IMG/VR virus record: IMGVR_UViG_2558860170_000008
DNA from: a virus
Lineage: Duplodnaviria > Heunggongvirae > Uroviricota > Caudoviricetes
Length of the DNA stretch: 53,298 nt
Direction: 5' to 3' (one strand)
In this document: in pieces, positions 4,094 to 43,080 of the stretch
How the letters are laid out: every line of letters starts with the position of its first letter
How positions within the stretch are numbered: position 1 is the first letter of the stretch
Notes under the pieces: generated by a model
Database searches by the model: none
Seen by the model: only the letters and a program-made list of their open reading frames with translations
Told to the model about the DNA's origin: nothing
Translations under genes and position numbers: made by a program

Positions 4094-4160
4094 TTTGATA
4101 CCGATTTGCATTTCATTTGATACCGCTGAAAAACGCCGATACGCAACTTATTTGATACTA
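4094..4160 (+). repeat. Three copies of a TTTGATAC(C/T) motif near the prophage right end; candidate transposase-binding sites
   Basis: TTTGATACCG at ~4094, TTTGATACCG at ~4116, TTTGATACTA at ~4151; same motif in inverted orientation at the other end. Confidence 0.45.
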
Positions 4161-4204
4161 AATCGGCGCTTTTCTTTTGAGTTTTAGAATGAGTTTTTAA
4201 GCGT

Positions 4205-5104
4205 TCATTCACTCTCTTTCAAACCAGTTTTAACTGTTTGTGGTTTTGGGTAAGGCTGGACTTTGAATAGCTTTGTGTTAAGGCGTTTTCTGGCTCTCTT
4301 GTCCAGAAACCGGATGTAACGAAACTGACGGAATTTATGAACACTGGCTCTGTCGATATTAGCCCGCAGATGTTCACCTCGCTGTCCTCCTCGTTTGATT
4401 GCATTCTTGCAAATCTCGTGATACCACTCGCCATCAAGTTCATAGAATGTTGTTTCATGACTGCCTACATAATCAAAATTGCTTGCCTGGTACACGACAC
4501 CAAGACAGCCACAACGCTCATCTGCAAACGACTGAACCCACTGCACCTGCGGATAAAGTTGTCTGATTAGTTTGAGCGCGTAACTGATTGCCCTTGATTC
4601 GGAGTTTCTCGGCATACAGTCATGCAGCCATAACCGGTTAAGCTCCATATATTCGCGGTTCTGCGTGCCAGTTACGACGCGTGCACCATTGTTTGGATTA
4701 AGGGCATAACCCCATTGCATTACGCCAACCAGCTCCCGTTCTGAAAATATGCCCAGATGAAGGTAGGAATTATTTACGAAACGATGGCTGTAATGTTTAT
4801 TGACGACGACCAGCCGGGCCAGCCAGCAACTTATTGTCTCAACCCGTAACTCACGGGAGCCATAACCGACGATATTGTCGTTATAGTGAATAAGTTCAGG
4901 CGTGCTGATGATACGGGATGTAACTTGCTTTCTGTTCCCCACGACAGGATTTCCTTGTGTATGTGGGGTGCTCTGTGGCGCTCTGAGATGTGATTTGATT
5001 GAGGGTTTTACAGCGCGGACATTTAACTTCCAGATAACTGAAGCTGGCTCGTGCCAGTAGCTTGTTACAATGTCGGCACCGTATGTTTCGATACATGGCC
5101 GCAT
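4205..5104 (-). CDS. mom: Mom-like DNA-modification protein; start codon uncertain
   Basis: Long ORF in a different frame overlapping a Com-like zinc-finger gene at the prophage right end, which is the Mu com-mom arrangement; no in-frame ATG/GTG/TTG near the com stop, so the start may be the ATG at 5104 or a non-canonical start near 4900. Confidence 0.55.
4896..5096 (-). CDS. com: Com-like zinc-finger translational activator of mom
   Basis: [35 protein letters not shown]... has the CxxC...CxxC spacing of Mu Com; ATG at 5094-5096; immediately precedes and overlaps the mom frame. Confidence 0.7.
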
Positions 5105-5142
5105 AACCTCCTGCTTTGTTGTTGATATCTTTATCACTCAAT

Positions 5143-5162
5143 CGATCGACAAAAACGATCGA
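5143..5162. promoter_or_regulatory. Two closely spaced GATC sites (CGATCG palindromes) upstream of com/mom
   Basis: ATCGATCGACAAAAACGATCGAT seen directly upstream of com; Mu mom is known to be regulated through Dam-methylated GATC sites and OxyR; functional equivalence here is inferred. Confidence 0.35.
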
Positions 5163-5352
5163 TTTGATTTATTTAATTGATACAACAAATAACACGAAAT
5201 GTCATTAGCGAAAATTTATGAGTTTGATCACTAATTTTAAACGGTGCTGTAACGCATAAGTGCTGAATGATTGTACATTTGAATACCGCAAAGCAAACAA
5301 ATCAACTAATTTATAGAAGTCAATTGGTTAATTGCCAGCGTAAGAGGCTGCT

Positions 5353-5646
5353 ATGGACAATCATGTAACGACGAGAAATCGAAAAATGATTGAAAATGCG
5401 GAAATCTATAATGATTATTTTTCCGATTATTCAGATGCCTGCAAATACAGTTCGAGTGCGGGAGAGTTCATATGCTTCAACTTTTTTATTAAATCTTATG
5501 TTTTTCCTCCACAGCAAGAAGATGGAGGTGTGCCACCTCCTGAAATCACTTTGCACCGTATAGCCTCCGTCTCAATGATGGAGCAACAGGCTAATGAGCT
5601 GTATAGCATTCTGGGAACGATTCTACAAAAGCGTGAATCGGACTAA
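5353..5646 (+). CDS. Hypothetical protein, low-GC, opposite strand to neighbouring prophage genes
   Basis: 97-aa ORF with ATG start in an AT-rich block; no recognised domain. Confidence 0.35.
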   Translation: MDNHVTTRNRKMIENAEIYNDYFSDYSDACKYSSSAGEFICFNFFIKSYVFPPQQEDGGVPPPEITLHRIASVSMMEQQANELYSILGTILQKRESD

Positions 5647-5813
5647 TGATACCGGTTCATTTGCCTGCCCGGATGGGGAAGCAGGATTGACTGCTCCATA
5701 AGCAGCTATATTTCTGAATACGAAATACTATCCAGCGATTACATATGGCTGGATAGCGGCAAAGATGTTTTCATTAGTGTCAAACCGGCAGAGGACACCA
5801 CCGGTTTGTATTG

Positions 5814-6068
5814 TTACATCATGGTACTGTCAGTTCCGGGCTGAGCCGGGTCTGGTTGCTCTGGCTGCGCGTCGGTTTTCGGCTCATTATCAGCATCACT
5901 GGCCGCAACTGCTGGCCCAATAAGTTTTGCCAGCACTTCATCAACGTAAGTGTCGATTTGTGCCTCAAAATCCTTGCGGACCTGCGCTTTCAGCAACTTA
6001 TTTACTTCACCGGAATACAGTGCCTGTTTTACCAGGTCTTCAGTGACGGTGCCTTTAATTTCTGGCAT
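5814..6068 (-). CDS. Hypothetical small acidic protein
   Basis: 84-aa ORF with ATG start and AAGGAGG Shine-Dalgarno just upstream. Confidence 0.5.
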   Translation of the reverse strand: MPEIKGTVTEDLVKQALYSGEVNKLLKAQVRKDFEAQIDTYVDEVLAKLIGPAVAASDADNEPKTDAQPEQPDPAQPGTDSTMM

Positions 6069-41874: not shown

Positions 41875-41875
41875 A

Positions 41876-42124
41876 TCATGACGCCTTTCTCATATAGCTC
41901 TTAACCTGGTATCGACTGGGCCAGATTTCTTCAGGTGATACCCCAAGAGCATCAGCAATTATTTGCTGATACGGTCGGCAAGGAGTACGTAATACGCTTT
42001 TCAGCGAATCCCTGCTGTAACCAGCCTTTAAAGATAAAGAGCGCAGTGATAAGCCTGCCATGTGTAAGCGCGCCTTGATGATTTCAGGCGGCCAATCGTG
42101 ATCTGAAACTTCTCTTCTACTCAT
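41876..42124 (-). CDS. ner: Ner-like DNA-binding early regulator
   Basis: 82-aa ORF; ...QQIIADALGVSPEEIWPSRYQ matches Mu Ner (...EQIIANALETKPEVIWPSRYQ). Confidence 0.8.
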   Translation of the reverse strand: MSRREVSDHDWPPEIIKARLHMAGLSLRSLSLKAGYSRDSLKSVLRTPCRPYQQIIADALGVSPEEIWPSRYQVKSYMRKAS

Positions 42125-42195
42125 ACTTCCTCTATTCTAAAAAGTTACCCGCGCGGATATTCGTGCGGATATCTGTACGGGTAAATAATGCATCA

Positions 42196-42232
42196 CCAAA
42201 AATACCAAATCAAGGTATTTTTGGTATTTTGG
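42196..42232. promoter_or_regulatory. Operator-like palindrome CCAAAAATACC-N7-GGTATTTTTGG (plus a further TATTTTGG) in the divergent c / ner-A-B control region
   Basis: Inverted repeat seen directly between the repressor and ner starts. Confidence 0.45.
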
Positions 42233-42314
42233 CTAATTTTTGCTTTTATCCTTATTTTTCAATTGGATAAATAGAAAGAAACCTTTCCTTAGAAAAGCAC
42301 CAAGAGGTATCTTT

Positions 42315-42845
42315 ATGTCGCAGGGAAAAGAACCTGTTATTGAACGTATTGGAATGCTTACAAAGCGCTACCCTTCAAGAAGTGCAGCTGCCAGAGCGTG
42401 GGGAATCAATATCAACACATTAAACAGCTATTTCAAGGGAGGACAAACACAACCAGCCCCCAGAGAAAGTATCCTTATACGAATTTCTGAAAGTGAAGGC
42501 GTTAGTCTTGAGTGGCTTAAAGAGGGCAAGGGTGAATTACCAAACGATATTGGTATTTATGGTAATTTTGGTTGTTCTGGTGATAAGGGAGATCAGCTTA
42601 CACAGATGCTTTCATTCCTTACGAAAGACGAACGAGAACAGTTAACCAATCTCCTTGCTCGCAAAGGTGTAGAGACGGTTCTGACACTGCTGAATAAAGA
42701 AAACCAAGATTTATTACAACTAGAAGGCAGGAAGCGCCTGGCTGCGTTGATGATTGTAGATATGCCAGACGATTGCGTCAGAGAGATTTTGGAAAAAACC
42801 GAGACAAGTAGGCAATCAAATCCGGTAGAATCTAAAGCGGGTTAG
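42315..42845 (+). CDS. Mu c-like repressor
   Basis: Start at ATG 42315 (MSQGKEPVIERIGMLTKRYPS...); divergent from ner; C-terminal region resembles Mu/D108 repressors. Confidence 0.75.
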   Translation: MSQGKEPVIERIGMLTKRYPSRSAAARAWGININTLNSYFKGGQTQPAPRESILIRISESEGVSLEWLKEGKGELPNDIGIYGNFGCSGDKGDQLTQMLSFLTKDEREQLTNLLARKGVETVLTLLNKENQDLLQLEGRKRLAALMIVDMPDDCVREILEKTETSRQSNPVESKAG

Positions 42846-42922
42846 TTTGGCGAGGCTGGCCCGTATGTTAGTTGCCATATAGATTTAATGAAGTTTTAAA
42901 CGCTTTAAAAAGTTGAGATCGC

Positions 42923-43080
42923 AGTATCAAAAGTTTTGCCGATTTTAGAATAAACGATTAATTATTGCACAATCGATATCAAATAGACTTTAAGCGCTCA
43001 TCCAGACATCACCTGTTTTATTTCAGTATCTTACAGGTGATTTCACCTCCTTTCACTAAAACCCTCGTTGGTATCAAATG
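42923..43080 (-). repeat. Three inverted copies of the TTTGATA(C/T) terminal motif near the prophage left end
   Basis: GGTATCAAAT at ~43070, GATATCAAAT at ~42978, AGTATCAAAAG at ~42925; mirror the three copies at 4094..4160. Confidence 0.45.

Follow-up and report, generated by a model that had tools for sequence, protein, structure and literature searches.

Inverted TTTGATA(C/T) triplets at the ends of an Sp18-type Mu-like prophage as candidate cores of transposase binding sites

The stretch of viral DNA analysed here, 53,298 base pairs (bp) long and referred to as the window (IMG/VR record IMGVR_UViG_2558860170_000008), contains a complete Sp18-type Mu-like transposable prophage, which is another copy of a catalogued Escherichia coli family. 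Each end of this prophage carries three copies of the motif TTTGATA(C/T), and the two sets are inverted relative to each other (Table 1). The gene set runs c/ner/A/B ... com/mom with Mu-type head, tail and invertase genes in between, as read from the annotation of near-identical E. coli prophages and, for A, B, Ner and Mom, from Pfam. The end corresponding to the 'left' (L) end of Mu, with c/ner/A/B, lies at the high coordinate, and the 'right' (R) end, with com/mom, lies at the low coordinate. The mom end is present in 247 of 5,426 complete E. coli genomes, where it lies beside many different genes, as expected of a transposable phage. Near-identical copies, flanked by short direct duplications, occupy no fewer than 13 chromosomal sites (citF, puuB, ypdB, flgL, sorM and others), and Sp18 of E. 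coli O157 Sakai has terminal sequences identical to those of the window and the same six motif copies.

Table 1. Features of the prophage in the window and of its two ends (nt, nucleotides; ORF, open reading frame).
Feature	Coordinates	Strand	Details
Complete Sp18-type Mu-like prophage	4077..43095	-	39,019 bp; termini from 10 insertions and the unoccupied site
Target-site duplication, copy 1, CAGC	4073..4076		unoccupied site has a single CAGC
R-end terminal 17 nt, TATAGCGCGGCGATTTT	4077..4093	+	terminus-proximal part of R1; identical in 10/10 Sp18-type insertions
R1 core, TTTGATAC	4094-4101	+	nt 18-25 from R terminus
R2 core, TTTGATAC	4116-4123	+	nt 40-47 from R terminus, 22 bp after R1
R3 core, TTTGATAC	4151-4158	+	nt 75-82 from R terminus, orientation as R1/R2
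mom (DNA modification) ORF, com upstream	4205..5137	-	R end; Pfam Mom 1.6e-77; Com/Mom annotated in relatives
MuB-type AAA+ target-DNA activator	38769..39710	-	Pfam Phage-MuB_C 8e-25, AAA_22; 48% identical to MuB (blastp)
Transposase, 696 amino acids	39784..41874	-	Pfam PF09299 2e-17, PF02316 2e-6; weak rve matches; blastp 22% to MuA
Candidate recognition helix, transposase residues 177-190, LSEITLKRWIAAFN	41305..41346	-	alignment of 13 transposases with known ends; sliding identity
Ner-like winged-helix regulator	41876..42124	-	Pfam HTH_35 2.5e-19
Repressor-position ORF, divergent from ner	42240..42845	+	no Pfam match; relatives annotate a shorter 531-bp coding sequence
L3 core, TTTGATAC	42924-42931	-	nt 165-172 of L end
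L2 core, TTTGATAT	42976-42983	-	nt 113-120 of L end; Sakai Sp18 has TTTGATAC at L2
Possible weak extra site, TAAGATAC	43026-43033	-	2 mismatches; nt 63-70 of L end, between L1 and L2
L1 core, TTTGATAC	43071-43078	-	nt 18-25 from L terminus; terminal sequence TGTAACCAGGTGAATCA
Target-site duplication, copy 2, CAGC	43096..43099		junction alignment and unoccupied site

A scan of the whole window for TTTGATAY gave 10 matches, compared with 3.3 +/- 2.1 expected from 100 dinucleotide-preserving shuffles of the same 53,298 bp, none of which reached 10. Six of these matches, three on the plus strand and three on the minus strand, are the copies reported in the preliminary description of the window, and its account of three copies per end, inverted between the ends, is confirmed at all six positions (Table 1). 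The remaining four are dispersed at a density close to chance, two inside the prophage (8635 and 22927) and two in the flank (51766 and 51772), and were taken as background. From a density of about 3e-5 matches per base per strand, simple arithmetic puts the chance of finding three copies on one strand within 65 bp or 155 bp at about 1e-9 to 1e-8. All six cores face inward, with the outermost copy at nt 18-25 from both termini. The weak motif-like TAAGATAC between L1 and L2 is conserved in Sakai Sp18.

The termini were determined by aligning both junctions of 10 independent E. coli insertions, in which homology begins at 4077 (5'-TATAGCGCGG...) and ends at 43095 (...CACCTGGTTACA-3'), i.e., 17 nt outside the outermost motif copies. 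The empty target was then reconstructed by joining the window flanks with one CAGC and was sought in E. coli genomes, where it was found uninterrupted in 10 genomes, within a prophage tail-fibre gene, at 99.3-99.8% identity. Since the unoccupied site reads through with a single CAGC, e.g., ...CACCTGGCAGCGCATTCC... in NZ_CP011416, both the termini and the exact CAGC duplication are fixed. The preliminary description had placed the termini at 4094 and 43080, which is incorrect, as the outermost motif copies lie there. A 5-bp duplication obtained by shifting the terminus by one base was also considered and was rejected, as it fails in most insertions and in the comparison of the window with the unoccupied site. 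The terminal 17 nt of the R end are similar to those of Kp4866-3 (TATAGCGCGCG), vB_YpM_5 and Tongde (TAAAGCGCGC), VW-6B (TGTAGCGCGGCGA) and Mu (TGAAGCGGCGC).

The host site of the window prophage is thus the tail-fibre gene of another prophage (flanks 3300-4076 and 43096-43900), and other prophages are often hit by Sp18-type elements, including tape measure and portal genes and Stx phages. CCTG or CCAG occurs 6-11 nt outside the R-end junction in 5 of 10 Sp18-type insertions (window 4064-4070 and the left flanks of L005, L013, L014 and L015; L numbers denote the loci compared here), and the L end itself contains CACCTGG. The CCTG/CCAG near the R-end junctions was seen post hoc and may be either a target preference or chance.

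The nearest deposited transposases are those of the Yersinia phages vB_YpM_5 and vB_YpM_6 (80% identity), followed by Tongde and the Klebsiella phage Kp4866-3 (56% each). The next relatives, VW-6B, SuMu and Mannheimia phages, show 43-47% identity, and Mu is not among the best 40 tblastn matches to the transposase. In vB_YpM_5, Tongde and Kp4866-3, three inward TTTGATA(C/T) copies are present at each end. The R-end copies lie at 18/40/75 in the window, vB_YpM_5 and Tongde and at 18/40/74 in Kp4866-3, and TTGATA is invariant in all 24 sites of the four elements. Five further loci (Salmonella, E. coli at two sites, a metagenome and Y. enterocolitica) were picked beforehand by transposase sequence alone from four sub-variants, and at the L end of each of the five, beyond the repressor gene, TTTGATAC occurs exactly three times, facing inward. 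Two of these loci are one element at different sites, and the point at which their sequences part lies exactly 17 nt outward of the first copy, an independent confirmation of the terminus offset. The repressors beside the conserved L ends belong to different families. An alignment of ends from related Mu-like prophages, which the preliminary description had proposed as the check on its reading, with loss of the motif as the outcome that would speak against it, therefore shows a conserved motif.

Such conservation bears directly on whether the clustering is a chance product of A/T-rich ends. A motif of 8 nt is short, and the ends are indeed rich in A/T; however, the count exceeds that of every shuffle, the copies sit at identical positions where the intervening sequence has diverged, and the clustering was correctly predicted in all five new loci. 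Because the motif is conserved, we regard chance as excluded for practical purposes.

The same comparison also addresses a possible role in packaging. In Mu, the outer ~50-60 bp of the L end contain the pac signal, which overlaps the L1 region, and the L-end copies could by analogy be part of such a signal, with the R-end copies being coincidental or having another role. Sp18 DNA is known to be packaged (PMC2669165). However, pac would require the L end only, whereas the copies are equal in number and mirrored in orientation at both ends, and the R-end spacing of 18/40/75 is the most conserved feature. Given this mirrored arrangement, a packaging role alone is very unlikely, although packaging and transposase binding are not mutually exclusive roles.

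A further line of evidence comes from elements that are otherwise Mu. In vB_YpM_5, Tongde and an E. coli element (L032, in WS1933D), B is 99% identical to MuB and the gene order is Mu-like. They encode transposases of the same clade as that of the window, with 24-28% identity to MuA, and have TTTGATAC at their ends. Since these elements are otherwise Mu, the occurrence of the motif tracks the transposase gene rather than the genome as a whole. These sequence comparisons indicate that A and the ends are transferred together as one module, with transposase-plus-ends exchange within 'Muvirus'.

Which part of the transposase might read the motif was approached by sequence and by structure prediction. 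The DDE core, the Mu-specific C-terminal barrel IIbeta (PF09299) and a MuA Ialpha-like N-terminus are detectable by sequence, with PDB profile matches to 1tns (1.8e-5) and 4fcy (2e-3). Residues ~65-300 gave no match in single-sequence or profile searches of PDB sequences or Pfam at E values up to 5, so Ibeta and Igamma cannot be mapped by sequence. Pairwise alignment of this region to MuA is ambiguous, with two possible registers, and the alignment used for structure prediction is shallow, containing only close relatives at 77-97% identity. The predicted model modestly supports residues ~65-300 as a tandem Ibeta/Igamma-like end-binding module. The protein would thus have the layout of MuA/TnsB-type transposases, i.e., an RNase-H-fold DDE core, a IIbeta barrel and N-terminal tandem helix-turn-helix domains, of which the end-binding part is the predicted one. 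The candidate helix lies in the part of the predicted model that matches MuA Ibeta.

This helix was compared with the end motif across transposases with known ends. Nine transposases, 56-100% identical, combine the end motif TTTGATAC with the helix LS-x-I-(T/S)-LKRW, which is also present in all 120 close homologues retrieved. The Shigella type pairs TTCAAGATAA with ISRDPLYQW (full sequence at residues ~170-190: RTISRDPLYQWVLKYNQ), VW-6B, whose ends read TT(C/T)TGGAC, pairs TTCTGGAC with VGKSSLHQW, and SuMu pairs TTTTGCATA with VSVRTLNGW. The Shigella flexneri/E. coli element (L016, L017, ~1735-1900), known here from two loci and by its L end only, has an A protein 76% identical to that of the window and three copies of TTCAAGATAA at that end, starting 17 nt from the apparent terminus, as in the window. 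By sliding identity, the Shigella protein is 85-98% identical to the window protein in the core but only 42-45% at residues 121-200, whereas the Tongde and Kp4866-3 proteins, at 56% overall, reach ~70% at residues 161-200. The class of the helix at residues 177-190 thus matches the class of the end motif, suggesting that it is probably the recognition helix. The preliminary description had proposed that the repeats are binding sites of a transposase with a distinct end specificity; this is supported by a motif that is conserved at related ends and is replaced by other words where the helix diverges.

Another DNA-binding protein, namely the phage repressor, Ner, MuB, or host IHF, HU or Fis, might occupy the repeats instead. 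In Mu, the repressor and the host proteins HU and IHF also have roles close to the L end, the flanks of the cores are A/T-rich, and contact of the transposase with the cores is itself a reading of the sequence. However, the motif occurs at nt 18-25 from either terminus, a symmetric arrangement that would suit a protein pairing the two ends, and a motif scan of the window found no TTTGATAY in the c-ner operator region. The motif is the same in Escherichia, Salmonella, Yersinia and Klebsiella elements, even though their adjacent repressors are of different families and their MuB ranges from 44 to 99% identity to that of Mu, and it changes when the transposase helix changes. To our knowledge, it is also unlike the consensus sequences of host factors. 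Because the motif is independent of repressor family and MuB type and dependent on the transposase helix, we consider another binding protein unlikely.

We therefore favour, with a probability of about 0.88, the explanation that the Sp18-type prophage has six transposase binding sites whose conserved cores are the TTTGATA(C/T) copies. By analogy with Mu, transposase monomers on the six sites would pair both ends into a transpososome, which would nick the 3' ends at the termini and join them to staggered positions in the target DNA. Recognition would be bipartite, in that the terminus-proximal ~17 nt, which are Mu-like, would presumably be read by the Igamma-like subdomain together with the catalytic core, and the distal TTTGATAC core by the Ibeta-like helix-turn-helix, probably through the helix at residues 177-190. 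In MuA, according to what Schumacher et al. are said to have found in 1997, each 22-bp site is divided between two subdomains, with Ibeta contacting the better conserved half, away from the terminus, and Igamma the half near the terminus. Physical binding, the assignment of subdomains to half-sites and transpososome assembly are features that we infer by analogy.

Several points weigh against this explanation. Residues 65-300 have no sequence similarity to MuA Ibeta/Igamma, and reading of the distal half-site by an Ibeta-like part leans on the findings attributed to Schumacher et al. Contact between protein and DNA is deduced from sequence throughout. The clean contrast between helix and motif is that of one close pair, i.e., the window type and the Shigella type, and the covariation in VW-6B and SuMu counts for little because both proteins differ everywhere. 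Moreover, although the site layout is Mu-like, R3 is oriented differently, the R terminus is TA and the scar is 4 bp, so the Mu model may not transfer in detail.

The scar itself was compared in 13 junction pairs (L003-L005, L010-L015 and L032-L035, with Sakai Sp18 included among the insertions compared). Of 13 independent insertions of the transposase clade, 12 have a 4-bp target duplication and one (L014) has a verified 5-bp duplication, AGACG, for which the unoccupied site matches at 100%. In GenBank records LC727895 and LC727881, the depositors also annotated 4-bp duplications. Since L032, with a B protein 99.4% identical to MuB and an A protein of the window clade, still leaves 4 bp, scar length goes with the A protein. 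All members examined have TA at the R terminus, i.e., the transferred strand ends ...TA-3', and the L termini are TG in the Sp18-type copies and TA in several relatives (strain M3, 79% subgroup). The recognised scars are 5 bp (Mu) and 6 bp (B3), and TA-TA ends have been reported for Leptospira prophages only (PMC8705779). We tentatively suggest, at somewhat less than even odds, that the Sp18/vB_YpM_5 clade is a natural variant of the Mu machine, in which the 4-bp stagger would be set by A, the termini may be TA or CA, and end specificity would be exchanged among close relatives via the helix at ~177-190, giving the orthogonal pairs TTTGATAC, TTCAAGATAA, TTCTGGAC and TTTTGCATA.

The prophage family has been known since 2001, and the binding-site finding itself is already known. 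Mu, FluMu, Pnm1 and Sp18 were listed with six putative transposase binding sites in 2008 (PMC2628397), a statement that probably goes back to Morgan et al. 2002, and Sp18 was described as an intact, packaged, non-circularising Mu-like phage (PMC2669165). Because the six sites of Sp18 are already listed in PMC2628397, the motif finding is a correct rediscovery in another prophage copy. Full-text searches, with the primary 2002 Mu-like prophage comparison outside their reach, returned no paper on Mu-like phages that gives the TTTGATAC motif or a scar of 4 bp, and the literature searched contained no description of a 4-bp stagger set by A, of TA-end tolerance or of exchanged helix specificity. 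The 4-bp scar, the TA termini and the pairing of helix and motif are the parts that might interest transposition specialists.

The main value of the analysis is correct annotation, i.e., ends at 4077 and 43095, six sites, a 4-bp scar and an insertion in the tail-fibre gene of another prophage. Tools that search for Mu-like prophages by a 5- or 6-bp scar and TG...CA termini would set wrong boundaries for this group, which is common in E. coli, Salmonella and Yersinia. The natural swaps of A plus ends into a Mu backbone indicate that scar length goes with the transposase, and the helix-motif pairs suggest orthogonal sets of Mu-type transposases and ends that might be used for in vitro transposition.

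Several other features of the window and its relatives were also observed. Internally deleted or rearranged derivatives (L010, 10.5 kb; L011, 16.5 kb, with IS903B inside; L012, 32 kb, rearranged) keep both ends intact and the 4-bp duplication, resembling natural mini-element-like remnants, and L010 is without most of the transposase gene. In several related prophages, PGAP places a 'tRNA-OTHER' between the genes for virion morphogenesis and head morphogenesis (window ~25120-25242; L003 20898-20977), and ARAGORN found no tRNA anywhere in the window. In the right flank, outside the prophage, an Rfam ALIL pseudoknot (117 bits), an IS3-family frameshift signal, lies on the minus strand at 48921-49037.

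Among known systems, the end sites bound by TnsB in the Tn7 family belong to a cut-and-paste element with TnsA and a 5-bp scar, without phage context. The transposable prophages of Leptospira with TA-TA ends are a precedent for Mu-like termini of TA instead of TG...CA, but their scar is 6 bp long and neither host nor sequence is related (PMC8705779).

The element shares with Mu three sites per end in mirrored arrangement, a terminal site next to the cleavage point, R1 and R2 22 bp apart, an L1 separated from L2/L3, and a conserved core in the half of each site that is farther from the terminus. The outermost nucleotides agree as well, in that both L ends start with the 4 nt TGTA and the R ends coincide over much of their first 11 nt (TATAGCGCGGCG in the window vs. 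TGAAGCGGCGC in Mu), and both elements have a MuB partner and a transposase with Ialpha-like, Ibeta/Igamma-like (here as predicted), DDE and IIbeta domains. The cores of the window lie 18/40/75 nt inward from the R terminus and 18/113/165 nt from the L terminus, giving 95 bp from L1 to L2 and 52 bp from L2 to L3, compared with 105 and 40 bp in Mu. In Mu (NC_000929), CGAAA(A/G) cores end at nt 27 of L1 and R1, with L2 and L3 105 and 145 bp inward of L1, and TTTGATA(C/T) was not found in these ends, where CGAAA(A/G) takes the equivalent position. Comparison with NC_000929 thus bears out the earlier impression that the motif is unlike the L/R end sites of Mu.

We note further differences from Mu. 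The core is CGAAA(A/G) in Mu and TTTGATAC in the window, and the 22-bp MuA consensus is unmatched by the window end sites. R3 is inverted in Mu, whereas all three R copies of the window are direct, on the same strand. The R terminus of Mu is CA (5'-TG read inward), whereas that of the window is TA (5'-TA), and the scar is 5 bp in Mu and 4 bp here. MuA is only 22% identical, over the full length, to the window transposase, whose end-binding region is unrecognisable by sequence. The 5-bp duplication, TG...CA termini, MuA consensus sites and MuA-close transposase of Mu sensu stricto are thus all absent from the window element.

The Yersinia phages and Kp4866-3 share the transposase clade, three TTTGATAC copies per end and alike R-end positions, whereas the Yersinia phages are otherwise Mu (B 99% identical to MuB, Mu gene order) and their L termini begin with TA. 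The closest known system is Sakai Sp18, which has the same ends (TGTAACCAGGTGAATCATTTGATACC ... GGTATCAAAAAAATCGCCGCGCTATA), six motif copies and a 4-bp scar (TAAA in sorM), and the proteins of the related prophages L005, L014 and L015 are Sakai-type. It differs in length (38,755 bp vs. 39,019 bp in the window), in its place of insertion, and in carrying TTTGATAC at L2, where the window has TTTGATAT.

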